Part shown: piece by piece, positions 3,514 through 16,747 of the stretch
Numbering within the stretch: the first letter of the stretch is position 1
Layout of the letters: every line of letters begins with the position of its first letter
DNA from: a virus
Direction: 5' to 3' (one strand)
Virus record (IMG/VR): IMGVR_UViG_3300045988_113942
Length of the DNA: 48,224 bases
The notes under the pieces: model-generated
What the model saw: the letters and a program-made list of their open reading frames with translations, nothing else
Database searches by the model: none
Told to the model about the DNA's origin: nothing
Made by a program: the position numbers and the translations under genes

Positions 3514-4061
3514 TCCTCGTCCTCCTTGATCTTCGATAGCAGGAACGTCTTGAGCACGAGTGCAGCATCGTCTTGCGAAACCTTGCTCACGTCATCCGTC
3601 ACTTTTTTGAAAAGAGGAGTGCCAGAGCCGTCAACGATGACGCACGTCCGAATTTTCTTATTCGTTGTGAAGCTATCATTCGTTGTGAAGTGGACTCCAT
3701 AACGCTTGCCGTTGACGTAGAACTCATAACCCCAGATGTTCTGAGTGCCATCGATCTCGCAGTTGAGGCGCTGCATCTGTACCCCTACCCACTCCGTTTG
3801 GGCCTTTTGGAAAGCCTTTGCGTCCTTCGCTGCCCGCAGGATCGAATTCGCGATTTGCTCGGCTTCGAAGTGCCACATGTCGGCGATATATCCCCCTTCT
3901 TTGACTAGGACTCTTACAGAGGCCCCGCTCCTTTCAATAAGCGCGAGAAAGTCACGATCCTCGTCAAGCGTGTTGTCGTAATAGTCCTTTGCCCACGGCA
4001 TGCCGACGATCTCGGCAATCGCGGCCTGAGCGGCCTCATCAATTTTTACTCTCTGGCTCAT
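3510..4061 (-). CDS. Hypothetical protein
   Basis: MSQRVKIDEAAQ... The ATG at 4061 forms an ATGA overlap with the upstream stop. Confidence 0.6.
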   Translation of the reverse strand: MSQRVKIDEAAQAAIAEIVGMPWAKDYYDNTLDEDRDFLALIERSGASVRVLVKEGGYIADMWHFEAEQIANSILRAAKDAKAFQKAQTEWVGVQMQRLNCEIDGTQNIWGYEFYVNGKRYGVHFTTNDSFTTNKKIRTCVIVDGSGTPLFKKVTDDVSKVSQDDAALVLKTFLLSKIKEDEE

Positions 4062-4828: not shown

Positions 4829-5680
4829 TTAATTGTTTTCGTTGACTGCGTCGTCGATATACTCGGCGTCGTTCACGTCGCCTTTCTCGATGAACTCTGC
4901 ATCGAGGAAGTCCTGGTCCGTCGTTGCCTCGCCTCGGTCAGTCTTCTCGTCGATCTCGACGGCGCGGACGGCTTCGATGCTCACCGGCAGGTACTTGAAC
5001 AGGCGGCGGATGACGGTCTTCTTGGCCATCTCCTCCCAGTGGGAGGACCACGGGCCGGAGTTGCCAGCCTTCGAGGAGGTGCGGACCTTCTCGATCTCTG
5101 CGCGGCTCATCACTTCGAACTGGACGCCACCGCCTTTGAGTTTGGCGACGGCATAGACGTGAGTGACCTTTCCTCGATCCGCAACCGACGCAGGAATGTG
5201 CTCGATGTCCGGGTCAAGGCCGAGCTTGTAGTTGAAGGTGTCCTGTTCGTGCACGCAGTAGGCTTGCAGGCTTACGATTTGGCCTGAACGACGTGCGAGG
5301 TCGATCATTCCTCGGTAGCCGATAATCAACTGCGCGTTCGGACGGCCTTGTTTGTCCTTTCCGTTGCCGAAGGGGAGTAGGTAGCAATGCCCGAGCGCGG
5401 AGCCGGGCTCAAGGCCAAGGGCGGCGCACTGGAGGACGGCGCCGTAGAAGGACTCAGGTGCGCACTTGAGAAGCGCCGGGGTCTTCCTGCACTCGGTCAT
5501 CACGATGCGCGTCAGACGGTCGGGCGTCATGCTCTTGGGCATGGCGAGTGCCATCTGCTTCTGGAAGTTCGGCTGTCGGATCATTCCGAGAAGCGTCGTC
5601 GGATTCTTTGCGGCTTGGACGACAGCAGTCTGTGCGGCGGCAGGAGCAACCTGCGATTTGAGAACGTCAGTAGTTGACAT
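4829..5680 (-). CDS. recT: RecT-family single-strand annealing recombinase
   Basis: RecT hallmarks: QCAALGLEPGS, HCYLLPFG, IIGYRGMIDLARRSG and KKTVIRRLFKYLP. Confidence 0.9.
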   Translation of the reverse strand: MSTTDVLKSQVAPAAAQTAVVQAAKNPTTLLGMIRQPNFQKQMALAMPKSMTPDRLTRIVMTECRKTPALLKCAPESFYGAVLQCAALGLEPGSALGHCYLLPFGNGKDKQGRPNAQLIIGYRGMIDLARRSGQIVSLQAYCVHEQDTFNYKLGLDPDIEHIPASVADRGKVTHVYAVAKLKGGGVQFEVMSRAEIEKVRTSSKAGNSGPWSSHWEEMAKKTVIRRLFKYLPVSIEAVRAVEIDEKTDRGEATTDQDFLDAEFIEKGDVNDAEYIDDAVNENN

Positions 5681-5691
5681 GAGTTTCCTTT

Positions 5692-6714
5692 TTAAGCGAG
5701 TCGAAGGATTCGGGTGGAGGTGGTCTGTACGAAATCTGCGTACAGGTCAGGGTGTTCTTTCTTGAATGCGGTGGAGGAGAAGCGAGAGCTGTTCTGCGCC
5801 TTGAACGTGACGGCCTTTTGACCGCCGATCGTGAGGCCTGTCTTTTCACCGATGGCGAGGATCACGCGAGAGGCGACGGCCTTCTCTTGCTCCTGAAGCT
5901 CTTTGATCTGCTCTTTGATCGTTCGGAGCTCGCCGATGTCGGCAGCTTCGTCGTTACTGGCTTCTTTCAACTCGCCGTTGTCTCGGGAATAGAGCTTCTT
6001 GATGTCGTCGACGTTGATGGGGTCGGGGGCGACGTCAGCAAGGACCTTCTCGAACCAGAAGGCGCGGCACTTTTCGACGATGGCTTTGATCACGTCCTCA
6101 TCGCGCTGCACTTCGTACATTCGGAAGTCCTGACCGCCGATGAGAACAGCGACATAGAACTTCTTGATGCCCGTCACCGCCATGTACCACTGAATCTGCG
6201 TTTCGTAGTAGAGCGGAATCTGGTGATCGGTGACGACCTTGCCGGACACGATCTCATCTTCCTGCGAAGGTCCCCACTTGTCAGCCATGAAGGCGTTGGC
6301 GGTCTTGCACTCGAGGCCGACGTCCGTCGAAAGCATGAGGCCGGTTTCGGCTGCCTTCGCGGGCTTGTTGACACGGACCGTTTTGGCAATCTGTTCGTTG
6401 ACGATTGCTCGGTCGATGTTGCCGCGCATCCACCCGTCTTCGCCGGTCGAAAGAAGGAAGTTCACGCGCTGAATCTTCATGCCAGTGCGCTTGCTGAACT
6501 CTTTCGCAACCACGTCTTCAAGCGTGGTTCCCCAGTAGGCAGCTTCACCTGCCGGTGAGCCTTTGGTCTTGCCGGTCTTCTCTTCCCACAAGCTCAGCGG
6601 CGTCTTGTAAGGGTTGAGGCCGAGGACGGTTGCAACGTCTGAACCGCCGATGCCCTTGCTACGTTCTTGTAGCCAGGCATCGCGTTCCATCTCTGCAGTC
6701 TTAATTGCTGCCAT
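5692..6714 (-). CDS. YqaJ/lambda-Exo-like recombination exonuclease (PD-(D/E)XK)
   Basis: WLQERSKGIGGSDVATVLGLNPYKTPLSLWEEKTG and GNIDRAIV...LECKT are YqaJ-type motifs. The gene is paired with recT. Confidence 0.9.
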   Translation of the reverse strand: MAAIKTAEMERDAWLQERSKGIGGSDVATVLGLNPYKTPLSLWEEKTGKTKGSPAGEAAYWGTTLEDVVAKEFSKRTGMKIQRVNFLLSTGEDGWMRGNIDRAIVNEQIAKTVRVNKPAKAAETGLMLSTDVGLECKTANAFMADKWGPSQEDEIVSGKVVTDHQIPLYYETQIQWYMAVTGIKKFYVAVLIGGQDFRMYEVQRDEDVIKAIVEKCRAFWFEKVLADVAPDPINVDDIKKLYSRDNGELKEASNDEAADIGELRTIKEQIKELQEQEKAVASRVILAIGEKTGLTIGGQKAVTFKAQNSSRFSSTAFKKEHPDLYADFVQTTSTRILRLA

Positions 6715-6937
6715 TCAAAACTCCTTGAAAGATCGCTGCCGCAACAATTGCGAGCGCTCCTACGAGAACAACGACCTTCCAGACCAGCGATGGTTGTTCA
6801 CATGAAAAAGGCTCGACGTTCTGCCGAGCCTGCTTTGCTTTCTTACGCTGTTCGAGCGGTCGCTTTGGTGTCTTGCGTTTCATGTCGAAGTCCCTTGGAA
6901 TGTGGTCAATGATGTGGACCGGGTCGGAGAAGCTCAT
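6701..6937 (-). CDS. Small protein with a C-terminal TM segment
   Basis: VWKVVVLVGALAIVAAAIFQGVL. Confidence 0.45.
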   Translation of the reverse strand: MSFSDPVHIIDHIPRDFDMKRKTPKRPLEQRKKAKQARQNVEPFSCEQPSLVWKVVVLVGALAIVAAAIFQGVLNGSN

Positions 6938-7185
6938 GCTGCTTCCTCCTCCTCGCGCTCCTGCCAGAGCACGCGAAGCTCCTCGAGGCAGTCCTCCATG
7001 ATGTCCTTGTCGAGCCCCGCGTCGTTGGCTGCTTCGGTGAACTCTTCGATCGTGACGAGCTCGCCTCCAGCTGTAAGCGTGTCGAGATCGAGCTCGTACC
7101 CGTCAATGAGGATCGGCTGCTCGTCCGGATACTCGTCGTACACTGACGGGACGCCGCCCATGCCGAAATAGAAGCCGTTGCTCAT
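6934..7185 (-). CDS. Acidic hypothetical protein
   Basis: 83-aa ORF, the first gene after the tandem terminators. Confidence 0.5.
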   Translation of the reverse strand: MSNGFYFGMGGVPSVYDEYPDEQPILIDGYELDLDTLTAGGELVTIEEFTEAANDAGLDKDIMEDCLEELRVLWQEREEEEAA

Positions 7186-7325
7186 GCGAAGTACCTCAAC
7201 TCGAGAATGGTGATCATGGTTGACTCCAGGTCAGATAGCTGATCCAAGCACTCTCACCCGCATGGCTGTGTCAAGTGAGGAACGGGCAAGGGCGCTTGGA
7301 TCGGCTTTCTTGAGGCAATAAAAAA

Positions 7326-7348
7326 GCCCCCGGCGTGGTGCCGAGGGC
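7326..7348 (-). terminator. Rho-independent terminator (second of a tandem pair)
   Basis: Stem gcccccggc / gccgagggc with one mismatch. The minus-strand RNA ends ...gggggcttttttatt. Confidence 0.6.
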
Positions 7349-7360
7349 AGGAAAAGCAAA

Positions 7361-7388
7361 GCCCCGTCAGTTTTCACCGACGGGGCTG
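7361..7388 (-). terminator. Rho-independent terminator after the PemK-like gene (first of the tandem pair)
   Basis: Stem gccccgtc / gacggggc. The minus-strand tail is ctttgcttttcc. Confidence 0.6.
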
Positions 7389-7487
7389 AATGTCGCTACG
7401 GTCGATTGCAATCTCGGTTCCGTAGAGGCCTTCCATAGGAAAGGACTTTAAACGAGTTCGGCGAACCGAACTGTGCCACTTCTGAAA

Positions 7488-7958
7488 CTAACACAGAACG
7501 TCCCTAAAGTCAAATACCTGGAAGGTGCCGTTTTCAACTTTTACTGAACCCGTGACGCCGTATCCTGCGAGAACTCCCGTGAAGATTTCGCACATGGTGC
7601 CAGCGGGCAAAGTTAGATAGTTGTATTCGCGCTTACCATCCCCACCATCTTTACACAGGAGGGGGAGTGAAAGGCGCTTGTAGCTCAGTGTGTAAAGCAT
7701 GTCGCACTTAGCCCAACACTTCAAGCTAGGGTACGCAGGAGAAATAGGTGCACAAAGATTGATTTCAACGTTGTAAGAGCGTTTTACCATCGGCTCTGTT
7801 GTGCTCAAGGGTACGAGCGTGGCATATCCGAAGCGATTGCGGTCCTTTGGCGAAATGCACACCACGGGGCGTCGCTTGACCATTTCTGGCTTTTCGAAGT
7901 CTTTCGGGAAATCGCAGATCAAGATTTGCCCGATTGCCGGTTGGAAACGGATAGGCAT
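7488..7958 (-). CDS. PemK/MazF-superfamily protein (YifN-like) with no adjacent antitoxin ORF
   Basis: N-terminus AIGQILICDFPKDFEKPEMVKRRPVVCISPKDRNRFGYATLVPLSTTEP follows the PemK pattern G.I...DF....E..K.RP.V.IS....VPL(S/T). Confidence 0.6.
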   Translation of the reverse strand: MPIRFQPAIGQILICDFPKDFEKPEMVKRRPVVCISPKDRNRFGYATLVPLSTTEPMVKRSYNVEINLCAPISPAYPSLKCWAKCDMLYTLSYKRLSLPLLCKDGGDGKREYNYLTLPAGTMCEIFTGVLAGYGVTGSVKVENGTFQVFDFRDVLC

Positions 7959-8356
7959 GCAAATTTATCCTTGGCAAAGTGAGATGTCAGCAATTGTACG
8001 TGAAAGCCCATCGAAGCGTCCTTGGTAAAGACGCTTCGATCGGCTTTCACACGAGACTCGGGTGTGCTCCTGCCGGCTGCTTGATCTTGCGATCCGTACC
8101 CCGGAGGCCCCTACGCGGGCGGCTGTGCCATCCCGTGCTAGCTACATGCAGGTCGTCGTAGCTCGCTCGCACTCGCCCGGCTGCCGTGCCGAGGTCTTAG
8201 CGGTCCGGGACCCTTCCTCCCTTTGCTCCTCACAGCCGGCGGGTTAGGCCATTTGTGGAGAGGTTGCGTCTATTCAAGCGCTCTCACGTGTTGCTCTTTG
8301 CAGGTGCCCGCAACAGCGCTTGAATAGACCGCCTGAACAACAGGCGGAGAATTCGT
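7959..8356 (-). ncRNA. Candidate structured untranslated RNA / long 5' leader of the PemK-like gene
   Basis: About 400 bp with no ORF of 60 aa or more on the transcribed (minus) strand. The region is GC-rich and contains a 20-bp hairpin (8000-8050), a 15-bp perfect inverted repeat (8268-8282 / 8315-8329) and a 7-bp hairpin (8331-8349). Confidence 0.35.
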
Positions 8357-8515
8357 TCACTTAAGAATCGTGAGAACCAGTACGGCAATGGCCGGGATGG
8401 CGAGCATCGCGCCGAAGAACAGGTTGACGCCGAACTCGATCGTGTCTTCATCCGTGAGCGTGCGCGGGTCGGCGCTGGGCGTCGAAGCGAAGAAGAAGTT
8501 GGCGAGCTTGGACAT
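8357..8515 (-). CDS. Small membrane protein (52 aa, below the ORF-track cutoff)
   Basis: Hand translation gives MSKLANFFFASTPSADPRTLTDEDTIEFGVNLFFGAMLAIPAIAVLVLTILK. AGGAG lies upstream of the ATG at 8515. Confidence 0.4.
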   Translation of the reverse strand: MSKLANFFFASTPSADPRTLTDEDTIEFGVNLFFGAMLAIPAIAVLVLTILK

Positions 8516-8524
8516 GGTTGACTC

Positions 8525-8770
8525 CTAGAGAGACTGGAGAATCTGGTTGACGTTGCGGGCGACCTGCGAGTACTTCTGAGTGATCGTCCTTTGTGCCCTG
8601 ATTGAGGGCGTCGTGAGCATGTAGAACGTGAGCTCCTGTGCGGCCGTGAAGTCCGCCATTGTGGCGACCAGCACGTCGTGGACGAGGCATGCGTCGCGGC
8701 CGAGGCATGCGTCGCGGCCGAGGCGGTGAAGGCGGATGGCCAGCACTTGATCGAACTCGGCGGCCTTCAT
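8525..8770 (-). CDS. Hypothetical protein containing an in-frame 18-bp tandem repeat
   Basis: 81-aa ORF; LGRDAC occurs twice, encoded by 8683-8718. Confidence 0.45.
   Translation of the reverse strand: MKAAEFDQVLAIRLHRLGRDACLGRDACLVHDVLVATMADFTAAQELTFYMLTTPSIRAQRTITQKYSQVARNVNQILQSL
8683..8724. repeat. 18-bp tandem repeat cgaggcatgcgtcgcggc, 2.3 copies
   Basis: Direct read: 8683-8700 equals 8701-8718, followed by a partial third copy. Confidence 0.9.
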
Positions 8771-9096
8771 TCCCTCTCATCCCTGAGAAGGCGGTAGATC
8801 TGGATCGCGATCGCATACTCCATCGCGCCTGTCTCGACCCTCATTTCGCTCGCAAAGACGTTGTCCGGCGAGGCGGTGAAGGAGCGGGACGTGATGACGA
8901 AGAAGTCCGCCAGATCGTTCAGAAGGCACGTAGCGGCGAAGGGATCGCGCTTGGTGATGTCGCGGATGAGCTCGTGCACGCCCCAGATGTCGAGCTTCTG
9001 GAGCTCTTCGGTGATGAGGTAGAGGTCGGCTTCATCAAGGCCGTATGCGCTGGAGATGCGGGCGTCGATGCAGGCGCGGAAGTCGTCGAAGGTCAT
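8767..9096 (-). CDS. Hypothetical protein, first gene of the early-left operon
   Basis: 109-aa ORF immediately downstream of the PL-like promoter. Confidence 0.55.
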   Translation of the reverse strand: MTFDDFRACIDARISSAYGLDEADLYLITEELQKLDIWGVHELIRDITKRDPFAATCLLNDLADFFVITSRSFTASPDNVFASEMRVETGAMEYAIAIQIYRLLRDERE

Positions 9097-9107
9097 GGTG
9101 TTCTCTT

Positions 9108-9139
9108 GCAGAAAATCGGAAAACCGTTTGTGTTTTCCG
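9108..9139 (-). promoter_or_regulatory. Leader hairpin / attenuator between PL and the first early-left gene
   Basis: On the minus-strand RNA, an 8-bp stem cggaaaac/gttttccg with a 7-nt loop is followed by attttct. Confidence 0.4.
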
Positions 9140-9146
9140 TAGTCCT

Positions 9147-9177
9147 TATATTACGGCAAACCGTAATGCGCCTGCAA
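9147..9177 (-). promoter_or_regulatory. PL-like promoter with an embedded operator
   Basis: Minus strand reads TTGCAG-18 nt-TAATAT. The spacer holds the palindrome TACGGtttgCCGTA, 5 nt after the -35, the same geometry as PR. Confidence 0.55.
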
Positions 9178-9184
9178 GCAAAAG

Positions 9185-9198
9185 TTTCGGTATCCCGC
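9185..9198. promoter_or_regulatory. Weaker operator-like site (TTTCGGTATCCCGC)
   Basis: Matches the consensus T(A/T)CGG-N4-CCG(T/C)A derived from the four copies. Confidence 0.35.
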
Positions 9199-9225
9199 AA
9201 TGCACTTAACCGAAATCAAAGAAAC

Positions 9226-9251
9226 GTAAAAAAGCCCGCGCAAGGCGGGCT
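9226..9251 (-). terminator. Rho-independent terminator of the repressor gene
   Basis: Stem agcccgc / gcgggct. The minus-strand RNA continues with ttttttac. Confidence 0.7.
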
Positions 9252-9278
9252 ATAGGACGGTGGAAGGTGGTATGGGCG

Positions 9279-9992
9279 TTAGAGCCAGCTACCGCCGGAG
9301 CGGTCGCGGACGCGGCCGATGAGGTGGAATGTCTGCATGTCGGCGCCGGAAATCGTCTCGTCGGGCACCTCCGGATTGAGCGACTGGATGAGCAGTCCAT
9401 TGATGAGGGAGCGCAGGACCTTGACCCTCATCTTGCCGTGAATCATGAATACGTAGACCTTGCCACTGATGATGTCGGTCGGCGTGCAGTCCACAAGGAT
9501 CTTGTCGCCGTCCCACAGGTAGGGCTCCATGCTGTCGCCGTGGACCTCGAAGGTCTTGCAGTTCTCGGGGTTGATCTGGTGAAGCTGAAACCACGAGCGG
9601 GGCTTGATGAAGCCGCATTCCTTGCCGTCAACTTCTTCAAAGACGGGGTTTTCGTTGCCGGGGCCAGCAGATGCTTGCACATGGTACTGAGGGATCACGA
9701 TGTAGTTAGGGTCTGGGAGCGCCGCGCCTTCGCCTGTGTCCTCATAGACCTGTACCGAGGTCGAGCGCATGGCGCCGATGCCTTCAGCGAGCCAGGACGC
9801 ATTGACGCCGAGGTACTCGGCTGCGCGTAGGGCGTGCTTGTAGTTGATTGCCTTCGTCTTTCCCGAGAACCAGTCCGTCATGGATGACGGACTCAGACCG
9901 CAGTGCTTTGCGAGGCCAGCCTTGTTCTTGTAAGGGGCGGTCAACTGGGCGGCCTCAAGAGCTTCCGCCAATCGTGTCGAGAGCGTGCTCAT
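9279..9992 (-). CDS. CI/LexA-like repressor (XRE HTH plus S24 peptidase domain)
   Basis: N-terminal HTH (KAGLAKHCGLSPSSMTDWFSGK). C-terminal S24 motifs VHGDSMEP and a later Lys (GKMRVKVL). Divergent from the cro-like gene. Confidence 0.9.
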   Translation of the reverse strand: MSTLSTRLAEALEAAQLTAPYKNKAGLAKHCGLSPSSMTDWFSGKTKAINYKHALRAAEYLGVNASWLAEGIGAMRSTSVQVYEDTGEGAALPDPNYIVIPQYHVQASAGPGNENPVFEEVDGKECGFIKPRSWFQLHQINPENCKTFEVHGDSMEPYLWDGDKILVDCTPTDIISGKVYVFMIHGKMRVKVLRSLINGLLIQSLNPEVPDETISGADMQTFHLIGRVRDRSGGSWL

Positions 9993-10012
9993 AGTCTTTC
10001 TCCGTGTCTAGG

Positions 10013-10026
10013 TTTCGGCATACCTT
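10013..10026. promoter_or_regulatory. Operator-like site over the PRM start region (TTTCGGCATACCTT)
   Basis: A degenerate copy of the operator consensus, just downstream of the PRM -10 on the minus strand. Confidence 0.35.
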
Positions 10027-10027
10027 A

Positions 10028-10056
10028 AACATAGTTGAGGGTGTGTTGCCTGTCAA
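10028..10056 (-). promoter_or_regulatory. PRM-like promoter for the repressor
   Basis: Minus strand reads TTGACA (10056-10051), a 17-nt spacer, then TATGTT (10033-10028). Confidence 0.5.
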
Positions 10057-10075
10057 TTACGGAATACCGTATACT
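10046..10075 (+). promoter_or_regulatory. PR-like promoter with an embedded operator
   Basis: TTGCCT (10046-10051), an 18-nt spacer, then TATACT (10070-10075). The palindrome TACGGaataCCGTA (10058-10071) overlaps the -10. Confidence 0.55.
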
Positions 10076-10110
10076 AGCTCCGTAGCATCATTTCACCTTC
10101 CCGAACTGAT

Positions 10111-10338
10111 ATGCAAGAGAACAAGCTCAAAAAGCCGAGAAGGCTCGATCCTGCCTTCAGCGCCCGCGTCATCGACGAGCTGGGCGGCACCAGCGCTGTC
10201 GCTCGTATCTGCGGCGTCACGCCGTCAAGCGCCAGTGAGTGGAAAGTGGACGGCATCTCTCGCGGCTACTTCATGTACCTGCGCGAGCGCTTCTCCCACC
10301 TTCCCATCATGCGCGAGAAGACCGCGCGCGACTTCTGA
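10111..10338 (+). CDS. Cro/YdaS-like HTH regulator
   Basis: LGGTSAVARICGVTPSSASEWK is an HTH. It is the first gene rightward of the divergent promoters. Confidence 0.7.
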   Translation: MQENKLKKPRRLDPAFSARVIDELGGTSAVARICGVTPSSASEWKVDGISRGYFMYLRERFSHLPIMREKTARDF

Positions 10339-10357
10339 TCCGACTGTCGGAGGTCCT

Positions 10358-11134
10358 ATGAACTACTACCCGCACAACATCGGCGACTTTGCCATTGAGA
10401 CGAAGTACATGACCTTTGAGCAGAAGGGCATCTACGTCGACTTGCTCGACCGCTATCTATCCACTGGCAAGCCACTGGCTACCCAGTGGGTCGCGGCAAT
10501 CGAGCGACTGGCTAGCGACGGTGCCGTGAAGTCGGTTTTGACCCTCTGTTTTGAGGAAAAAGACGGCTTCTACTACCACGCAGGGTGCGAAAAACTGCTC
10601 GCCGACTATGCCGCAACGGTCGAAAAGAACCGCCGGAACGCCAGAAGCCGCTCGAAGAGGACTTCCGAAACCGTTGAAGACGAACAGTTTGAACCCAGTG
10701 GCAACCCAGTGTCAGCCCAGTCGCTAGCCACTGGGGTACCTAACCAAGAACCAATAACCAATAACCAAGAACCAATAACCAGTAACCAGAAACCAGAAAA
10801 AGAGGAAGCGCGGTCAAAGCCCGCGCGTCGTCCCGCGCCGAAGCTTGTCAAGCCGGAAGGCGTCTCGGACGGGGTCTGGGATGAATGGCAAGCCCTCAAG
10901 CGAAAGCTTTGCAAGTCCTGCTCACAGCGCATGGTCGACGCGATTGACCGTGAAGCCCAAAAGGCAGGCATGACGGTTGAGGAGGCAATGGTCTATCAGC
11001 TCGAAAAAGGCTGGAAGGGCTTTGAGGCCGAATGGGTCCTCCGTGACCGAGGGCAGTTTTCCGATCAACCCAAATCTCAAACCAAATTCGTCCTCCGCGA
11101 AAAGCGGCAGGAAGACCGCAGATACGGACTTTGA
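10358..11134 (+). CDS. DUF1376 (YdaU-like) replication initiation-associated protein
   Basis: MNYYPHNIGDFAIETKYMTFEQKGIYVDLLDRY is the DUF1376 N-terminal signature. GGAGG precedes the ATG at 10358. The longer track ORF from 10004 was rejected. Confidence 0.75.
   Translation: MNYYPHNIGDFAIETKYMTFEQKGIYVDLLDRYLSTGKPLATQWVAAIERLASDGAVKSVLTLCFEEKDGFYYHAGCEKLLADYAATVEKNRRNARSRSKRTSETVEDEQFEPSGNPVSAQSLATGVPNQEPITNNQEPITSNQKPEKEEARSKPARRPAPKLVKPEGVSDGVWDEWQALKRKLCKSCSQRMVDAIDREAQKAGMTVEEAMVYQLEKGWKGFEAEWVLRDRGQFSDQPKSQTKFVLREKRQEDRRYGL
10742..10796. repeat. Iteron-like repeats inside the replication gene (21-bp unit, 2.5 copies, built from a 7-bp AACCA period)
   Basis: aaccaagaaccaataaccaat / aaccaagaaccaataaccagt / aaccagaaaccag... 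Confidence 0.8.
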
Positions 11135-11988
11135 ACATGCAGCAGATTTCTGAACTTTCGCAAGCCATCCCGGCATCGAAAACCGAAACGTTTACTTGCC
11201 CCATTCACGGTGACATGGTCTATGAGACCTATCGCCTGCCGGATGGATCCTGGAAGGCTCCGTACTGCCCGAAGTGCCGAGCCCTCGAGCTCGAGCATAC
11301 CCAGCTCATCAACCGCCTGAAGTCCGAGAACGACACTCGAGCCAAGGAGCTTCGCCAGACGTTCTCGACGCCTCTCCCGCTCGACTATGAGTTCGCGTCT
11401 TTCGACACCTATTTCCCCGAAAGCGACGAGGAATGCAAAAACATCGCCGTCTGCCGACGCTTCGCAGAGCGCTTCATGGAGCGTGAGCTCGAGCGTGAAA
11501 AGGCTCATGAAGCTCAACAGCACGACTGGCAGACGCTCAACTCTATTGGGCTTTTCTTTCAGGGTAACTACGGCTCCGGCAAGACGCATCTGGCTTACTC
11601 GATCCTCAAGCGCCTGCAGGCCGACGGTATGACCGGCTTCTACATCACGATCCCCGATCTCTTTGACCGCCTCTCCGACCGCGTGAACGTGATCGACCTT
11701 CCGAAGATGATGGCCAAGCTCACCATGGTGACCTGTCTCGTCCTCGACGAGATCGGTGTCCAGTCCGGCAGCGAGTATGAGAAAAAGCGCCTCTTCCAGA
11801 TCATCGATGGTCGCATCAAGAACGGCCGCCCCACGATCCTCATCAGCAACCTTGACCGCGACGAACTCAAGGCGCTCCTTACGCCGCGCGTCATGAGCCG
11901 CATCAAGGCCAGTGTCTACCCGCTCACCTTCACGGGCCGATCCCGTCGAATCGAAGTGGCCAATAACAAAGCCGAGGACATCTTCTGA
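11131..11988 (+). CDS. DnaC/IstB-like AAA+ helicase loader with an N-terminal zinc ribbon
   Basis: Walker A GNYGSGKTHLA, Walker B LVLDEIG, and CPIHG...CPKC near the N-terminus. Confidence 0.85.
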   Translation: MNMQQISELSQAIPASKTETFTCPIHGDMVYETYRLPDGSWKAPYCPKCRALELEHTQLINRLKSENDTRAKELRQTFSTPLPLDYEFASFDTYFPESDEECKNIAVCRRFAERFMERELEREKAHEAQQHDWQTLNSIGLFFQGNYGSGKTHLAYSILKRLQADGMTGFYITIPDLFDRLSDRVNVIDLPKMMAKLTMVTCLVLDEIGVQSGSEYEKKRLFQIIDGRIKNGRPTILISNLDRDELKALLTPRVMSRIKASVYPLTFTGRSRRIEVANNKAEDIF

Positions 11989-12278
11989 TGAATCAACCCA
12001 ACAAAAAGCCCACGGACTTCACCTTCTTCCAACTCTGCGACCGTTACCCCGTCTTTTCTGACATCAACACGAGGAATCGGCAGGCTACAGAGCTCTGGGA
12101 TGAGGTCACTGGGGATCGAATCCAAGTCGAGACGGTCGGCACCACGACCAGAGTCAAGAGAATCCGCGCAGGAGAGGACCGCGCTTTCGTCCTCGAGGTC
12201 TTCAAGGCATCGAGCCGAGACGCGGCACGAAACAAGCACTACGGCGTCGTAGGACGCATCCAGAGACAGGGGATCTAG
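11988..12278 (+). CDS. Hypothetical protein
   Basis: 96-aa ORF with an ATGA overlap with the upstream stop. Confidence 0.5.
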   Translation: MNQPNKKPTDFTFFQLCDRYPVFSDINTRNRQATELWDEVTGDRIQVETVGTTTRVKRIRAGEDRAFVLEVFKASSRDAARNKHYGVVGRIQRQGI

Positions 12279-12558
12279 ACGCGGGAAGAAAGGAAATGTT
12301 CGCAGGAAACGACGTCGACGCGATCTGGATGGAACAGTGGCCCATTCGGGCACTGTCGAGATGTTGAACATGACGGCTTCTCCGTGAGGTGGTTGATAGG
12401 CTGTCTGGGGAGACACCTTCAATCATCTCACGGGGGACCTAGAAAGGAGGAGGAATGGATGCGATTGAGTGTTTGATTGGCCTGGTGTTGCTCTTCGCGA
12501 TGTACGTGGCTTGGGTATTCGAAGGAGATGACTGGAATGAATGAAAAAAGGAGGGGGC

Positions 12559-12714
12559 ATGAAAGAAAGTGACGAATATCGCCTCGGACGATCTGCCGCA
12601 TTGCGTGGTGAGTCGATGGCGAAATACCAGAGCCTCACGGCTCGAATGAATCCCAAAAAGAGAGCAGCCTTCATTCAAGGCTATTACGACGGACTGAGGA
12701 GAAAGGAAAAATGA
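12559..12714 (+). CDS. Small hypothetical protein (51 aa, below the track cutoff)
   Basis: Hand translation gives MKESDEYRLGRSAALRGESMAKYQSLTARMNPKKRAAFIQGYYDGLRRKEK. GGAGGGGG precedes the ATG, and the stop overlaps the rusA ATG (ATGA). Confidence 0.35.
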   Translation: MKESDEYRLGRSAALRGESMAKYQSLTARMNPKKRAAFIQGYYDGLRRKEK

Positions 12715-13130
12715 TTGGTTTCACGATTGAGGGGGCTCCAGTCCCCAAAGGACGCCCGCGCTTCACGCGCACTGGGCATACGTTCACACCGGCCAAGACG
12801 CGTCAATACGAAGCTCTGGTGACGGCAAGAGCAAGGGAAGCCATGATCGGCAAGAGAAAGATCGAAAAACCGAACGCAGTGCGCGTTGACATTCTCGCTG
12901 TGTTCCCTGTACCCGCATCGTGGTCGAAAAAACGCCGTCTGGCGGCTCTGCAAGGTGTCGAGCATCACGTCTCAAAGCCGGACCTTGACAACGTGCAGAA
13001 GGCGATCCTGGACGGCATGAACGGGATCGTTTTTGAGGACGACTCGCAGGTGATCGACAGTCGGACCAGAAAGGCATACGGACCCGAGCCGGGGGTAAAA
13101 GTTTTTATTGATGAGGTGAAGCATGGATGA
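12711..13130 (+). CDS. rusA: RusA Holliday-junction resolvase
   Basis: GAPVPKGRPRFTR, KPDLDNVQKAILDGMNGIVFEDDSQV. Confidence 0.9.
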   Translation: MIGFTIEGAPVPKGRPRFTRTGHTFTPAKTRQYEALVTARAREAMIGKRKIEKPNAVRVDILAVFPVPASWSKKRRLAALQGVEHHVSKPDLDNVQKAILDGMNGIVFEDDSQVIDSRTRKAYGPEPGVKVFIDEVKHG

Positions 13131-13344
13131 TGCTGACCGAGCCGCCAGAAGCGATGAATGGATCATGCGTGCGGCGATAGAGGAGAGAAAGCCAGAGGGA
13201 CCGAGCCCGGTTCTCGTGAGCTTGTGTTTGAACTGCGGAAAGGTCATTGAGAGAGTGCCCGCATCCGCTAATGGAGTGAAAAACGTTCGACGTTGGTGCT
13301 GTGCAGCCTGCCGCGATGAGTGGGAAGAGGAACATGAACGCTGA
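13123..13344 (+). CDS. Small C4 zinc-finger protein (TraR/DksA-like pattern)
   Basis: CLNCG...18 aa...CCAAC. Confidence 0.45.
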   Translation: MDDADRAARSDEWIMRAAIEERKPEGPSPVLVSLCLNCGKVIERVPASANGVKNVRRWCCAACRDEWEEEHER

Positions 13345-13756
13345 AGAAAAGATTCTCGAAGACCGTCTGATCAACTGGGGACGGTGGAACCAAGACCCGA
13401 AGCGACAGGGACGCTCTCCGCTCTGTGCCTTCATGGAAGCCGTGCCGAACGATGAGAAAGACAATGACGCGCCGGTCGAACGGCATGACGGACCGCCGCC
13501 GGTGGATGTCAGCGATGCCCTGCTTGTACAGAGGGCGTGGGAACGTCTTCCGGTTGCGCCGGAACGCTACAGAAAGGCGAAGATGGTTGTCGGTGTTGCA
13601 TACGCCTTCAACGTGCCTTTCATGGACCTGAAGCGCATCCTGAGGAAGTATCACCGCATCAATCTCCATGAGCGGGAGTTTGATGGCCTGGTGGAGATGG
13701 GTAGAAAGATGATTCGAAACAATCTTCTCAAAATCGAAGGCATGCCACCAAAATGA
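13334..13756 (+). CDS. Putative late-gene regulator (Q-antiterminator-like)
   Basis: The LEDRLINWGRWN motif and the position after rusA and before the terminase region mirror lambdoid Q. A strong hairpin lies 45 nt downstream. Confidence 0.45.
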   Translation: MNAEEKILEDRLINWGRWNQDPKRQGRSPLCAFMEAVPNDEKDNDAPVERHDGPPPVDVSDALLVQRAWERLPVAPERYRKAKMVVGVAYAFNVPFMDLKRILRKYHRINLHEREFDGLVEMGRKMIRNNLLKIEGMPPK

Positions 13757-13799
13757 GTTATACTCAGCAGTAACAATTTGAAGCTGTGTGATCAGCGGG

Positions 13800-13846
13800 G
13801 CCGTTTTCTGGGATAGGTGCATCTTCAGAAAACGGCATGCCTTTTT
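13800..13846 (+). terminator. Strong hairpin plus T-run downstream of the Q-like gene (tR'-like)
   Basis: 11-bp stem gccgttttctg / cagaaaacggc (13800-13836), then ggcatgcc ttttt. Confidence 0.5.
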
Positions 13847-13973
13847 GCGTAGGTGGGGTTGGATTCTAAAGAATGAGCCTGTTGGAGATTTCTTGCGGGC
13901 TTTTTTATTTAAAAACCACTTTATTATGCTGCTTCAATGATATGTGTGATTTTTTTCATGCTAAGAGGTAGGT

Positions 13974-14117
13974 GTGATTACTAAGGTGAGGAAGAAAATT
14001 TACTATCGAATGGCGACTTTCGAAGGTGTAGATGCTTCAATAACATTGCAGTCATTACTGAAAAAAAATCTTAGAGTCAGGGGTTGGCAGTCGACAACAA
14101 CAGCTGAATCCCGATGA
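13974..14117 (+). pseudogene. 5' fragment of the first AT-rich island gene, out of frame with 14161-14988 across an A8 tract
   Basis: AAGAGG lies 5 nt upstream of the GTG at 13974. The frame stays open to the TGA at 14115-14117. Removing one A from the A8 tract (14061-14068) joins it to the downstream frame, which is open from 14062. Confidence 0.45.
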
Positions 14118-14160
14118 AAAAACTTTTAGAGCCATCAATCAACATGCAGAATGCCAGGGG

Positions 14161-14988
14161 ATGACCTGTTGTCAGGTTATTCAAGTAGATCCAAATGCTT
14201 ATCAGCCAGTTATGATCTACGACAGTGGAACTCCTGAAGAGTATCGTATTGATGCAGTTTCGACGACCGAGCTAGGGAGAGAGGACTTAAAAAGTCATAG
14301 CGATTTTGTAAACTCTATGCTTTATTTCGGAGTGAAGGGGAATGAGGTTGTGGTTATGCCATCAAGTGCATTAACAATGCTTTCTCTAGAGCGGTATTTG
14401 GGATGGTTGCTTTTTGATAAAAAGCTTATTCCAGAGGACGCGAAATTCGCTTTGATAAAAACATTTACTCCTAATGTTGACGAATTGATACGGCAACATC
14501 CGGTTAGAAGCGTTCAAATTGGGGCGCCAATTCTTAACGAGAGTTCCTCTTTTGTTAACGAAGGGGAAAAGAAAGGAGAGTCTTCATTAAAAGACAATGT
14601 TACTGTTAAGGATGGAGTTTCTGTTAACGTAGATAGTTTAGGAGCAAAAATCCTTAAAATTTTGTTAAGAGAAGGTAATAGTCAAGACAGTTGGGTTAAT
14701 GATCTTTCTGATCAATCGAATTTGCAAGCTAAATTGGTGATTTCTTATTCTCGAAAAACAGATCCCGCTGGCCGAAAGCTTATGAATGTTATCGGTTCTA
14801 GTTTGCGTAATATTGATGATAGTGAGTTAATTCTTACATTAGATGGATGCGGCGTCTTAAGGGGAGAACAACTTAATTTGAGTAAAACTATCGATGTTGA
14901 GAAAACAACACGCGGTTTATATGCAACAGGTAATCTCTATAGAGACATGGTGGCGTGGTTAATAGAAATCCATGAAAAGAAGGAATGA
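14161..14988 (+). CDS. Soluble protein of the AT-rich two-gene cassette (RexA-like by architecture; family not established)
   Basis: 275-aa ORF at roughly 35-40% GC, against roughly 55-60% in the flanks. It is 4-nt coupled to the downstream 4-TM gene. Confidence 0.6.
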   Translation: MTCCQVIQVDPNAYQPVMIYDSGTPEEYRIDAVSTTELGREDLKSHSDFVNSMLYFGVKGNEVVVMPSSALTMLSLERYLGWLLFDKKLIPEDAKFALIKTFTPNVDELIRQHPVRSVQIGAPILNESSSFVNEGEKKGESSLKDNVTVKDGVSVNVDSLGAKILKILLREGNSQDSWVNDLSDQSNLQAKLVISYSRKTDPAGRKLMNVIGSSLRNIDDSELILTLDGCGVLRGEQLNLSKTIDVEKTTRGLYATGNLYRDMVAWLIEIHEKKE

Positions 14989-15518
14989 AAATGAGATCTT
15001 TCTTTACAAGTACACTATTTGTAGTTGTTTTGATATGTCTGTTGCTGTTGGGCGGTGGGTATCTTGGTTGGTTAATGAAAGACCTTTCTGATGCTACCAA
15101 AACGGGATTGACATATGGGTTTATTACATTTGCGATTTTGCCAATCTCTTTGTGCTTGTGGGGTGTTAAGGAATTTAATGCTGCATTTCCTAATGTTGCT
15201 CTTGAGTTGGATAAAAATGGTAGAAATCGTCTAGGTTGTTTAATTGATGATAAAATCGAAACGATTATTGTATTGGCTTTTTTTATAGTATTTATTCAAA
15301 TTATTCTGGCCTTTTGTTTGCTTTATTTCTTTGCTGGTAGTAACTACGAATTTGTAATTTTAGGGATTCTTTTTGGCGGTATATTGTCTTCTCTTGTGTA
15401 TGGTTTGTATGTTTGCTTTTCAGTTAGAAAGTTGGCCAGAACAGTTGAAGAGATTATTTCTAAAAGAGTCGCAAGAGAAAGACTTGAGAAGTATAAAAAA
15501 GAATTTGAAGACTCTTAG
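14985..15518 (+). CDS. Four-TM membrane protein of the AT-rich cassette (RexB-like topology)
   Basis: Hydrophobic helices at about aa 8-30, 41-60, 93-115 and 121-146, followed by a charged C-terminal tail. Confidence 0.7.
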   Translation: MKMRSFFTSTLFVVVLICLLLLGGGYLGWLMKDLSDATKTGLTYGFITFAILPISLCLWGVKEFNAAFPNVALELDKNGRNRLGCLIDDKIETIIVLAFFIVFIQIILAFCLLYFFAGSNYEFVILGILFGGILSSLVYGLYVCFSVRKLARTVEEIISKRVARERLEKYKKEFEDS

Positions 15519-15567
15519 CTAGGCAAGCTCGCCAGTGAAAACTGACGGGCTTTTCTATTTCGAAAGT

Positions 15568-15592
15568 GGCTACTGTCGTAGCCGCTTTTTTT
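15568..15592 (+). terminator. Rho-independent terminator closing the AT-rich island
   Basis: ggctac tgtc gtagcc followed by T7. A weaker hairpin lies at 15530-15556. Confidence 0.75.
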
Positions 15593-15957
15593 GTGTCCAG
15601 TGCGGCTGAGGCACGAGGCGGTCGTGGCTTTGGCAGCGTTCATTCTCCCGTCCTGCTCCTACGAAGAGCTATGCACCGAAGCGCACGACCGTTGTGAAGA
15701 GGAACGCGACCGTCATCAACCAGACGGTGAATCAGGTGCCGGCATCTTCCAACAGTGGCTTCTGGTCTACTGTTGCTGGATTGTTCGCGGGATCGATGGC
15801 AGGCAATGCTGTCTACGATGCTGTGACCGGTGACAAGAGCTAGGAGCCGGTGCAGGCTCAACCTCAGCCCGCTCAATAAAATTCCCAATAAAACGAAAGC
15901 CGTAGGAGCTACCAACTCTTGCGGCTTTCTCGTTCTACAACCTGAAGTAGAGGTCGT

Positions 15958-16569: not shown

Positions 16570-16578
16570 GACCCTTGC

Positions 16579-16672
16579 GGGCGGTTCCGACCCCGAAAAC
16601 GGTCTAGATGCAATTTTCAAAAGGGTGTTTATGAACATTTCACTTTACGCTTTCCGTGAACGGTTTACGCTT
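16579..16672. promoter_or_regulatory. Candidate cos region (cosN-like GGGCGGTTCCGACC plus two TTTACGCTT repeats)
   Basis: The GGGCGG..CGACC motif at 16579-16592 resembles lambda cosN (GGGCGGCGACCT) and lies about 170 bp upstream of the small terminase. The 9-bp repeats at 16644 and 16664 are 20 bp apart. Confidence 0.3.
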
Positions 16673-16747
16673 GCCGGCGCTCGCCGGTATTGAAGCGAAA
16701 GCGCGAACGCGTGAAGATGGAATTACCAAACAAAATGAGGTGTTGGC

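Follow-up and report, generated by a model that had tools for sequence, protein, structure and literature searches.

We identified, on the minus strand of a viral DNA sequence of 48,224 nucleotides (IMG/VR record IMGVR_UViG_3300045988_113942, henceforth referred to as the window), a structured non-coding RNA of a family that had not been described before and whose members are ~250-350 nt long. The conserved RNA of the window spans positions 8051-8347 (~300 nt), and the family is a constant component of the early-left (PL) operon in a set of lambdoid prophages recovered from human-gut metagenomes, whose hosts are probably gut Proteobacteria. If the family is as it appears, it is a well-supported and sizeable addition to the short list of phage non-coding RNAs, with a clear genetic handle: its position is fixed, natural variants are abundant and reporter tests are simple.

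A conserved RNA family in the PL operon

The RNA lies in a gap (7959-8356) that the original prediction described as the longest non-coding stretch of the genome, ORF-free, GC-rich, dense in hairpins and placed inside an operon. It is indeed the longest such stretch provided that the short ORFs within it are discounted as spurious, the next-longest being 13823-14160 (338 nt) and ~7186-7487. Our automatic gap listing, which is a rough guide only, split the region because its greedy ORF picker took two spurious GC-rich ORFs. The term ORF-free is approximately true: each frame of both strands contains 2-6 stops, and the ORFs that exist there are all ≤61 aa, lack conservation and show 1-nt indels in relatives. 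At 8051-8330 the GC content is 0.636, whereas the window as a whole has 0.543 and the PemK-like gene next to the gap 0.503. The operon location is supported by a PL-like promoter and a cI-like gene on the upstream side and by exo and RecT on the downstream side, all on one strand; the sense strand of the gap is the minus strand. No tRNA or tmRNA was found in the window.

For the minus strand of the gap the folding energy is -172.9 kcal/mol (z = -5.3 relative to dinucleotide shuffles), and the plus-strand fold has a z of -3.7. All three hairpins named in advance were found, bearing out the predicted density. The gap is nevertheless two separate things, the conserved RNA at 8051-8347 and a 51-nt hairpin at 8000-8050.

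We gathered related loci through PemK homologues and a motif scan and ran covariance models on the retrieved loci. The relatives of the window RNA comprise ~60 phage or metagenome loci that fall into six sequence types, A to F, with the window as type A. They share an architecture in which a hairpin lies directly 5' of a box GGAC(C)GCU..GA and is followed by a variable hairpin, a box GAGCG, two more hairpins (the loop of the second ending in GCCG), a box AGGCC and, at the end, a GNRA-type hairpin. The boxes GGAC(C)GCU..GA and GAGCG are single-stranded and nearly constant among types.

The proposal of a structured RNA is strongly supported, as the stems are kept in related phages through compensatory changes. 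Among 18 distinct type B and type C cores, 97.3% of cells are paired, versus 44-53% in controls with slid 3' partners. Double-sided changes occur in nine pairs of these cores, and the observed values were reached in 0 of 500 shuffles. RNAalifold independently finds two of the stems described below (P6 and P7) and an ACGG/CCGU helix. The sequences of P3 and P4 differ in each type and complementarity is always kept, and G-U pairs are restricted to the operon-sense strand. No homologue carries a gene in place of the core, a result that also favours an RNA.

The window was tied to the other types by sequence and by structure. A sequence profile built from type C only has its top match at 8117-8217(-) of the window (E = 8.4e-5). 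The structure model R1, from whose build type A was left out, ranks 8110-8230(-) first (E = 0.0057, 11 kb, filters off). Only these two find the window; profiles built from type B or from types B and C do not. With the window core as the query, type F is retrieved in three loci (L010-L012) at E = 6e-5 to 2.5e-4. In larger searches, types A and E are tied to B and C by borderline covariance-model scores (14 bits, E = 0.05-0.14). Type D (L008 and L009) is undetected by every model or profile, and its membership is a matter of manual motif matching only. Wider motif scans, one viral and one of a metagenome, returned copies of type C only, all in human-gut assemblies, together with chance matches.

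A scan with Rfam covariance models, suggested at the outset as a check, placed the window RNA in no described family, including the pemK motif, riboswitches, ribozymes, 6S, ROOL and GOLLD. The whole window has no match in Rfam 15 at gathering scores; permissive searches (E up to 10) gave nothing relevant in 7200-9300 or in L008, and the loci of types B, C and E yielded only a tRNA (in L184). We did not find a description of this RNA in the literature, and BLAST against 50,697 GenBank phage records returned no match to the window region or to a type B RNA.

Parts of the RNA

All parts are on the minus strand and are given here from 5' to 3'. The 5' edge of the element is P0 (8329-8347), a 7-bp hairpin (CCGCCUG/CAGGCGG) that begins 9 nt past the stop codon of a 52-aa membrane ORF. 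The hairpin had been predicted at 8331-8349; it exists, and its true place abuts the next hairpin at 8268-8329. Types B (CAGAAGG..CCUUCUG) and C also have a hairpin at this site, of unrelated sequence. P1 (8268-8329) is a long hairpin in which the predicted perfect 15-bp inverted repeat forms the outer stem around an inner stem GUUGC/GCAAC at 8290-8314; it contains the motif AUUCAAGCG..CGCUUGAAU. Its equivalent in type B is a two-tier hairpin of other sequence (UCUGCCGC..GCGGCAGA around AUCGAGC..GCUCGAU), and in L184 the sequence is different again.

P1 is followed by a variable 5' domain or linker (8222-8267) whose length and sequence differ among types. It could pair locally (CUCCACA/UGUGAGGAG) or form a long-range helix between 8233-8243 and 8069-8079. 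A second possible long-range helix joins 8110-8127 with 8231-8248. The CAGCCGG/GCCGGC segments at 8050-8265 that had been read as repeats are not repeats; they are the arms of these possible helices.

P3 (8207-8221) is a hairpin, GGGA-GGAAGGG-UCCC, directly 5' of the GGAC box. It is present in types A, B, C and E with varying stems (GGUGG/CCACC, GGGG/CCCC, CCGG/CCGG, GGAG/CUCC and GAGG/CCUC). The conserved single-stranded box itself (8194-8206) reads GGACCGCUAAGAC in the window and GACCGCGAAGAC in type F, with the family consensus GGAC(C)GCU-R-UGA. Candidate partners for it are CGCUA/UAGCG or GCUAUGA/UCAGGC, both helices being made of invariant bases. The conserved boxes of the RNA include GGACCGCU and GAGCG.

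P4 (8176-8193) is a hairpin, CUCGGC-ACGGCA-GCCGGG, with a U-G pair that is possible on the minus strand only. The stems of the other types are CCUGCC/GGCAGG, CCCGCC/GGCGGG, CACGU/AUGUG, CUCCC/GGGAG, CCGCA/UGCGG, CAGU/ACUG and CUCUU/AAGAG; pairing is kept in all of them, and nearly all positions differ among types. The next conserved box (8164-8175) is CGAGUGCGAGCG in the window, GAGUGCGAGCG in type C, GCCGAGCG in type B and GAGUGCGAGUG in type F.

P5 (8136-8163) is a hairpin AGCUAC..GUAGCU followed by AGCA, and its loop contains ACGACCUG, as it does in type F; stems in other types are AUCC/GGAU, AUGG/CCAU and CUACG/CGUAG. P6 (8106-8135) is a hairpin CGGG-AUGGCACAGCCG-CCCG whose loop has the conserved GCCG at its end, and it is followed by the box CGUAGGGGCC (family consensus GUCAGGCC). 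The P6 region is aligned by R1, and the nhmmer match spans 8117-8217. The 3' domain (8051-8104) consists of CCGG..CCGG around GAUC-GCAA-GAUC, with a GNRA-type loop, and a short linker. We infer that this domain is equivalent to P7 of types B, C and E (GCUCCUUUC-GCAA-GAGAGGAGC), a hairpin that shows compensatory changes in the type B and C cores.

Operon position and candidate functions

The RNA is always within the PL operon. In types D, E and F it begins 50-100 nt past a PL-like promoter, and no conserved ORF was seen between the two when the sequences were read. In types A, B and C, two or three ORFs stand between PL and the RNA, which are ~0.75-1 kb apart. The PL/OL region of the window (9097-9232, minus strand) is downstream of the cI terminator (9233-9251) and includes a palindrome ATTACGGTTTGCCGTAAT and a leader hairpin at 9117-9139. 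Within it, TTGCAG-18-TAATAT is a candidate PL promoter, assigned by reading the sequence and not by a tool.

No strong terminator separates the PL region from the RNA in any locus examined. In a terminator census, 0 of 67 strong sense-strand terminators fell in the 900 nt before the RNA core and 31 of 67 fell 0.5-1.5 kb past it. The upstream terminators are 0.94-2 kb before the core, at the end of the cI/immunity genes where this was checked (L223, L184). In types C, E and F a hairpin with a U run follows 30-130 nt past the RNA. A tRNA gene comes after the RNA in four loci, in L184 only 6 nt past its 3' end.

Variable cassettes with terminators are inserted just 3' of the RNA. They are of the defence or toxin-antitoxin kind, and among them are cassettes for PemK, a Panacea-domain protein and an NYN-domain protein. 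In the window, the PemK-like cassette ends in tandem intrinsic terminators (7326-7387, minus strand) with GC-rich stems of 12 bp and 9 bp and U runs, and PL transcripts reach exo and RecT only by passing them. The ORFs between PL and the RNA have pIs of 4.4, 8.8 and 4.4 and are neither basic nor N-like. No N-like ORF was seen, nor any conserved ORF after the RNA or conserved protein partner adjoining it.

Because of this position, our leading guess is that the RNA is a put-like cis antiterminator of the PL operon that enables read-through of the cassette terminators, a tentative proposal to which we give somewhat less than an even chance. Transcribed from PL, the RNA would fold and act in cis on the RNA polymerase that is transcribing it. 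The polymerase so modified would resist the intrinsic terminators of downstream cassettes (7326-7387 in the window), and transcription would then get to exo and RecT without an N-like protein. In its wider form, in which the family is a new class of large protein-independent antiterminator RNA that lets defence and toxin cassettes with terminators of their own land safely in the early-left operon and in effect licenses a cassette hotspot there, the proposal is possible though doubtful. An antiterminator of this kind would bring the RNA-based systems known, so far put, EAR and conAn2, to four and would be the first large one in Gram-negative temperate phages, and it would explain how terminator-bearing cassettes can accumulate in an essential early operon without polar effects.

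There is precedent for both RNA-only antitermination, in HK022 put just downstream of PL (PMC9378689), and large antiterminator RNAs, in the conAn2 regions, which are 260-600 bp and confer read-through of many terminators (PMC8191782). The put elements are ~70 nt, fold into two stem-loops in a V shape, have copies downstream of PL and PR, and suppress termination in cis via the RNA polymerase beta-prime zinc-binding domain (PMC9378689). Like put, the window RNA would be a cis element in a lambdoid early operon, situated after PL and ahead of the first terminators without an N-like protein encoded between promoter and element, and it would explain read-through of intrinsic terminators. The order of promoter, element and first terminators without an antitermination protein is thus the same in both. 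This part of the prediction stands, whereas membership in the put family does not: the RNA is ~250-350 nt (~300 nt in the window) with at least seven helices, and it occurs once, in the left operon only. We know of no sequence or structural resemblance between this RNA and put, and the two were compared by description.

A second copy of the RNA was found neither by nhmmer and blastn nor by R1, which over 6000-17000 with filters off gives no other match under E = 0.079. As the rightward operon of the window lacks both a strong terminator ahead of the Q-like gene and a second copy of the RNA, antitermination would be needed only on the left.

The conAn2 and EAR RNAs resemble the window RNA as large, GC-rich, structured intergenic RNAs in long operons of mobile elements. 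However, conAn2 belongs to conjugative plasmids of Firmicutes (Gram-positive) and needs an upstream protein, ConAn1, for action at a distance, whereas the window RNA is without a conserved adjoining protein partner. The lambda nut site consists of boxA and a 15-nt boxB hairpin and requires N. The window RNA matches nutL in map position, as each comes first in the PL transcript, ahead of the first terminator, and differs from it in that no N-like ORF is seen.

Several observations weigh against an antiterminator. The RNA is four times the size of put, has an unrelated architecture and is present in a single early operon rather than in both. In types A, B and C it is ~0.75-1 kb from PL, and the genes downstream might have their own promoters. 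The terminator directly past the RNA in types C, E and F fits a discrete stable RNA equally well, and the tRNA gene after the RNA in four loci also counts against antitermination. L209 and other cassette-free loci have no strong terminator past the RNA, so that the RNA is conserved even where there is none to bypass.

A processed stable RNA with another role would, in our judgement, be nearly as likely as a put-like antiterminator. Specifically, a discrete non-coding RNA could be made early from PL, released by termination or processing, and act in trans, a reading that we consider somewhat unlikely. Its release could involve RNase P at the following tRNA, or RNase III or E at the flanking hairpins, and its roles could be, for example, to sequester a host protein or defence factor or to serve as a scaffold like other large ornate phage RNAs. 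The complex multi-helix fold with its invariant unpaired boxes, the strong hairpins that bracket both ends, the hairpin and U run directly past the RNA in types C, E and F, the four tRNA genes and the conservation in L209 are all consistent with such an RNA.

The ROOL and GOLLD RNAs are also big, highly structured and phage-associated; they are found in prophages, often beside tRNA genes, and are of unknown function (PMC12286853). They share with the window family the proximity to tRNA genes, but they are 500-800 nt, come from Firmicutes or from lake or rumen samples, and their Rfam models do not match. Against a stable RNA, types A, B and C lack a promoter of their own and their RNA begins 5-10 nt past a stop codon; the 3' end is without a terminator in most type B loci, and complementarity to the rest of the phage is ≤11 nt. 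Action in trans would also leave the strict position upstream of all terminators unexplained. If the RNA does act in trans, it is a candidate host-takeover or anti-defence RNA of abundant human-gut phages.

It is improbable that the RNA works as a riboswitch- or attenuator-type leader that senses a ligand or factor and gates PL transcription into the delayed-early left genes. The order of promoter, structured RNA, terminator and genes in types E and F fits such a leader, as does the placement of highly conserved unpaired nucleotides in a junction. However, the terminators are separate hairpins 30-130 nt away, with no alternative pairing to the conserved core seen, and many loci have no following terminator. 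In types A, B and C the RNA is internal to the operon, the genes downstream are variable cassettes, and none of the Rfam 15 riboswitch classes matches. The ~300-nt length also exceeds that of any aptamer known to us.

The PemK-like cassette

It would be natural to assume that the spacer serves the toxin-like gene beside it; this is corrected here, whichever function the RNA has. That gene (7488-7958, minus strand) encodes a PemK/MazF-like (YifN-type) protein of 156 aa and is the solitary gene of a cassette inserted just 3' of the RNA. The gap could in principle be its control region, as a type III RNA antitoxin, a translational control element or an RNase III processing leader, all put forward in the original prediction; we assign this a low probability. 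The first two are unsupported for the core RNA, because, of the 37 viral loci that bear the RNA, only 8 have a PemK homologue and 29 show none (19 of the 29 extend at least 2 kb downstream). In every PemK clade of ≥57% identity that we examined the RNA is within 1.3 kb upstream, but it is absent at ~150 loci of more distant homologues, and elsewhere the same place is held by other cassettes or by none. These co-occurrence counts rule out a PemK-specific RNA.

Like the ToxI-type antitoxins of type III systems, the gap is non-coding and immediately precedes a gene for an endoribonuclease-fold toxin without a protein antitoxin. ToxI-like antitoxins, however, have tandem direct repeats, and there are none in 7959-8356 (TRF, minimum score 30), the sole array being at 8674-8724 within an ORF. 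The toxin here is of the PemK/MazF family and not ToxN, CptN or TenpN, and the RNA mostly occurs without it. A type II PemK/MazF module would have an adjacent co-transcribed protein antitoxin gene, and there is no conserved ORF in 7959-8356 or 7388-7487. The toxicity of the PemK-like protein is itself putative.

The sole element of the gap that is linked to the cassette is the 51-nt hairpin (8000-8050, minus strand), which belongs to it and not to the conserved RNA. The hairpin is present as predicted, with 24-nt arms that are 92% complementary; of its 21 positions 20 are paired and one is a G-G mismatch, and it is perfect in L002. Similarity to L008 and L009 starts at 8011, within the hairpin. 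The motif GAAAGCCGAU-Y-N-AAGC..GCUU-N'-R-AU is also found upstream of 41%-identical PemK homologues in other contexts (L077, L081-L084), so that the hairpin accompanies homologues of 92% to 41% identity, and its central pair changes in a compensatory way (G-C in the window, U-A in L008 and U-A in L077). A further copy, GAAAGCCGAUCCAAGCG..GCUUGGAUC (7233-7310, minus strand), lies just past the terminators on the other flank of the cassette. There are three copies of the motif in 48 kb, all in 7233-8329, where shuffles expect 0.14.

These features, together with the missing protein antitoxin, are what favour a control function. The 21-bp duplex suffices in length for RNase III, whose type of substrate is a near-perfect duplex of ~20 bp or more, and an RNase III processing site at 8000-8050 is plausible from the pairing; P1 has 15 perfect bp and an inner stem. 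Against it, the L077-type hairpin is upstream of a good promoter with its own operator and may therefore be off the toxin mRNA, and upstream palindromes of unrelated sequence are common among PemK homologues.

It is very improbable that the region is non-functional, as a decayed gene, a recombination scar between cassettes or a DNA-level element of protein-binding palindromes: the region is mosaic, a 66-aa ORF without a Pfam match that stands between hairpin and PemK in L008 and L009 is missing from the window, a relic ORF attests a deletion nearby and hairpin copies sit at the cassette borders, but this reading is largely refuted by the covarying stems and fixed boxes of six diverged types, by the strand-specific G-U pairs, and by the lack of any homologue with a gene replacing the core. 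A decayed gene in particular was rejected, as all frames contain stops, 1-nt indels among types exclude a common reading frame, and no remnant of the 66-aa ORF was found in the window.

The PemK-like protein matches Pfam PF02452 (E = 2.8e-11), phrog_15698 and phrog_1936, with no PADLOC model and no PDB sequence relative, and a protein search of GenBank phages returned only distant PemK-like genes of Vibrio phages. The relic ORF, of 11 aa, is at 7182-7217 and marks the nearby deletion. The 5' UTR of the gene occupies 7959-7999 on the minus strand and carries the Shine-Dalgarno sequence AAGGA at 7968-7972. A promoter call at 7962-7990 is probably spurious, as its -10 element falls between this AAGGA and the ATG of the PemK-like gene.

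Genome setting and folding of the gap

The window is a lambdoid prophage-like genome. On its minus strand, a cI-like repressor gene (9279-9992) and its terminator (9233-9251) are followed by the operator/promoter region (about 9100-9230), three small ORFs (8767-9096, 8525-8770 and 8357-8515), the gap (7959-8356), a PemK/MazF-like gene encoding 156 aa (7488-7958; Pfam PF02452, E = 2.8e-11), two strong tandem terminators (7326-7387), two small ORFs, an exonuclease gene (5692-6714) and RecT (4829-5680), where the operon ends. The rightward genes encode a Cro-like protein, replication proteins, RusA and a weak Q-like protein. Because of the minus-strand gene order around the gap, we place it inside the early-left (PL) operon, with the minus strand as the transcribed sense. 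ORF 8525-8770 (81 aa) contains an 18-nt tandem repeat (8674-8724; 2.8 copies, 93% matches) that encodes a repeated GRDACL peptide.

The original prediction described the gap as an ORF-free, GC-rich, hairpin-dense spacer within an operon, and our analysis bears this out. The gap sits between minus-strand PL-region ORFs and the PemK-like, exonuclease and RecT genes, and has stops in all six frames. GC content is 0.636 at 8051-8330 versus 0.543 in the whole window, and relative to dinucleotide shuffles the folding z score is -5.3 for the sense strand and -3.7 for the opposite strand. All three hairpins that had been read by eye exist, with the short one at 8329-8347 rather than 8331-8349. No tandem repeat or tRNA was detected in the gap. 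The suggested Rfam scan (Rfam 15) gave no match at the gathering score for the window, and nothing relevant at E values up to 10.

A family of related RNAs

We searched with the PemK-like protein and obtained nine viral contigs, seven of which are 96-99% identical to the window across 7300-9300. For the other two, L008 and L009, similarity is limited to 7310-8011, which takes in the PemK-like gene and, of the 8000-8050 hairpin, its 3' arm. Other lambdoid prophages have more distant PemK homologues (57-66% identity) at the corresponding site, with a Peptidase_S24 repressor on one side and YqaJ-exonuclease/RecT on the other, and always with a sizeable 5' stretch without credible genes. These stretches and the window (element at 8051-8347, minus strand) share one layout. 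The stop of a small membrane ORF is followed by a short hairpin and a long two-tier hairpin. The core starts with a hairpin immediately 5' of GGAC(C)GCU-R-UGA, then a variable hairpin, GAGCG(C)G and two further hairpins, the second with GCCG at the end of its loop; AGGCC and a terminal hairpin, whose loop is of the GNRA type, complete it. A scan of the viral collection with the two near-constant single-stranded boxes (GGACN{0,1}GCTNNGAN{15,40}CGAGCGNGNNACG) returned 71 matching stretches, of which 37 are true copies with the full layout. A second motif scan retrieved only type C copies from the viral collection and 13 additional copies from the metagenome collection; the latter stem from gut-type assemblies (ENA or ERZ), and three carry the title human gut metagenome. 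The copies fall into six sequence types (A-F), the window being type A.

We assessed covariation in 18 distinct type B and C cores, using a hand-drawn structure of 29 pairs (P3, a closing helix, ACGG/CCGU with P5, P6 and P7; hairpins are numbered P0-P7 from the 5' end). Pairing was found in 97.3% of cells versus 44-53% when the 3' partners were slid by 1-3 columns, two-sided changes occur in nine pairs (44 cells), and none of 500 shuffles matched the observed values. A blind RNAalifold run recovered P6, P7 and the ACGG/CCGU helix. It paired the GGAC box as GCUAUGA with UCAGGC, where the hand-drawn structure has CGCUA with UAGCG; both candidate helices consist of invariant bases. P4 could not be aligned by MAFFT and was tabulated directly: the stem is CUCGGC/GCCGGG in type A, CCUGCC/GGCAGG or CCCGCC/GGCGGG in type C, CACGU/AUGUG or CUCCC/GGGAG in type F, CCGCA/UGCGG in type E, and CAGU/ACUG or CUCUU/AAGAG in type B. 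P3 takes five different forms, each complementary. G-U/U-G pairs occur on the operon-sense strand only (one is invariant in all 18 type B and C sequences), which argues for an RNA of that strand. Because types differ by 1-nt indels (GGACGCU versus GGACCGCU), they have no shared reading frame. Stems thus keep pairing while changing sequence among related phage loci, as expected of the candidate structured RNA originally predicted, and these comparisons show a structured RNA family.

Profile searches place the window in this family. A sequence profile of type C alone had its best match at window 8117-8217 (minus strand; E = 8.4e-5, runner-up E = 3.7). R1, a covariance model made from types B and C only, ranked window 8110-8230 (minus strand) first with 14.2 bits and an alignment that agrees with the manual one; an exhaustive search of 11 kb gave E = 0.0057, and larger searches gave 0.06-0.14. 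The window core as query matched type F in L010-L012 (E = 6e-5 to 2.5e-4), and the two have identical P4 loops (ACGGCA) and P5 loop motifs (ACGACCUG). Type E (L014) scored 14.5 bits with R1 and E = 0.033 with the type C profile. The weakest link is type D (L008 and L009), tentatively included by manual matching of boxes and hairpins.

No match was found in Rfam 15 for any type tested, none of 50,697 GenBank phage records contained anything resembling the RNA, and full-text literature searches turned up no description of it. We rate it as a new RNA family.

The PemK-like cassette and its flanking hairpins

The suggestion that the gap encodes an RNA antitoxin or control element for the PemK-like gene is not supported for the conserved RNA. 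Among the 37 viral loci with the RNA, 8 have a PemK homologue (L183 and the seven of window type) and 29 do not; of these 29, 19 have at least 2 kb of downstream sequence. Conversely, loci with more distant PemK homologues, about 150 in all, had no detectable RNA. The RNA and the PemK-like gene are not partners, and the link between them is one-way: this PemK clade occupies a cassette hotspot just 3' of the RNA, where relatives have a gene for a Panacea/SocA-domain protein, an NYN-domain protein or a 323-aa protein of unknown family, a tRNA gene, or nothing. Such variable cassettes are seen in L223, L221/L230 and L214/L203, and the Panacea/SocA-domain protein is accompanied by a membrane partner. 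The PemK gene has its nearest genome matches in gut MAGs that carry the labels Collinsella, Bacteroidaceae, Duodenibacillus and Sutterella, which are weak evidence for the host.

The 51-nt hairpin at 8000-8050, beside the PemK-like gene, is separate from the conserved RNA. The similarity of the window to L008 and L009 begins within it, and its motif (GAAAGCCGAU-Y-N-AAGC..GCUU-N'-R-AU) also lies 5' of PemK homologues of only 41% identity (L077, L081-L084), after unrelated genes and ahead of a good promoter that has an operator of its own. P1 of the window RNA (AUUCAAGCG..CGCUUGAAU) shares the motif, and a further copy lies at 7233-7310, just beyond the cassette terminators. As AYYNAAGC..GCUUN'RRU, the motif occurs at 7233-7310, 8000-8050 and 8268-8329. 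The whole 48 kb has only these three copies, which fall within 1.1 kb (chance expectation 0.14), and the PemK-like cassette is flanked by two of them. Both between copies and between phages, the central pair shows compensatory variation (G-C at 8000-8050, C-G at 7233-7310, U-A in L008 and L077). The 8000-8050 hairpin may be an RNase III site, a protein-binding site or a recombination border.

L008 and L009 encode a 66-aa acidic ORF without a Pfam match (3710-3910) between the hairpin and the PemK-like gene; in L008 it lies between the hairpin and a residual 3' arm. The window retains no remnant of it and looks like a deletion between these hairpin repeats. As the seven window-type contigs lack the ORF, it is not indispensable as an antitoxin. 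Elsewhere, an 11-aa ORF (MITILELRYFA; 7182-7217, minus strand) overlapping the next gene's start is the end of a 63-aa membrane ORF that L008 retains in full (5077-5268), and therefore marks a deletion in the window. In L014, copies of the RNA terminal hairpin (CCUUGAAG..CUUCAAAGG type) at 2320-2385 and 2860-2920 border genes on the opposite strand that are inserted between RNA and PemK, which echoes the hairpin duplication in the window.

Position in the PL operon and possible functions

The RNA of types D, E and F starts 50-100 nt past a PL-like promoter (TTGACT-18-TATTAT in L012 and TTGCCA-17-TATAGT in L014, each with 10/12 matches), with no conserved ORF between promoter and RNA in the sequences read; that of types A, B and C is preceded by two or three ORFs. 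A census of strong sense-strand terminators at distinct RNA loci found none within 900 nt before the core. Upstream terminators are 0.94-2 kb away from it and, in the loci checked (L223 and L184), sit at the end of cI or immunity genes; 31 terminators lie 0.5-1.5 kb after it. The window has three between the RNA and exo/RecT (7360-7387, 7326-7348 and 6809-6831). The last, a terminator-like hairpin on the minus strand (9 pairs and a U run), falls within a conserved 78-aa basic-plus-transmembrane ORF (6701-6937) that is also intact in L008. No N-like ORF precedes the RNA (pI 4.4, 8.8 and 4.4), no ORF conserved across types follows it, and the rightward operon has neither a strong terminator before the Q-like gene nor a second RNA copy.

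The RNA thus has the same map position as nutL and putL. RNA alone can perform antitermination in HK022 (PMC9378689), and such RNAs can reach several hundred bases, as in conAn2 (PMC8191782). On these grounds we place first, as a tentative reading, that the RNA would act as a cis-acting antiterminator of the PL operon; if so, it would represent a new variant of RNA-mediated antitermination. We rate this reading no higher because the RNA is also conserved in loci without a downstream terminator (L209).

The features just downstream of the RNA would fit a released stable RNA equally well. From reading the sequences, a hairpin and U run lie 30-130 nt past the RNA in types C, E and F, before the rest of the operon, and such a terminator directly 3' of the RNA suits release. 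In four loci (L184, L203, L210 and L214) a tRNA gene lies just 3' of it; that of L184 (10718-10788; Rfam tRNA, 67.9 bits) begins 6 nt past the RNA 3' end, and RNase P cleavage there would free the RNA with a defined 3' end. The large size and many invariant unpaired bases would also suit a ribonucleoprotein or RNA-only machine of another kind, which likewise tempers the antiterminator reading. A sensing leader would be a further, poorly supported option, since the core and the terminators are not interleaved and the genes downstream vary.

Two other non-coding features were observed in the window. An 8-bp hairpin followed by AUUUUCU (9117-9139, minus strand) lies in the leader between the putative PL and the first ORF, and could be an attenuator or pause site. 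The second-longest non-coding gap (13823-14160, 338 nt) lies 3' of the weak Q-like gene (13301-13756) and probably represents the region of the late promoter and Q utilisation.
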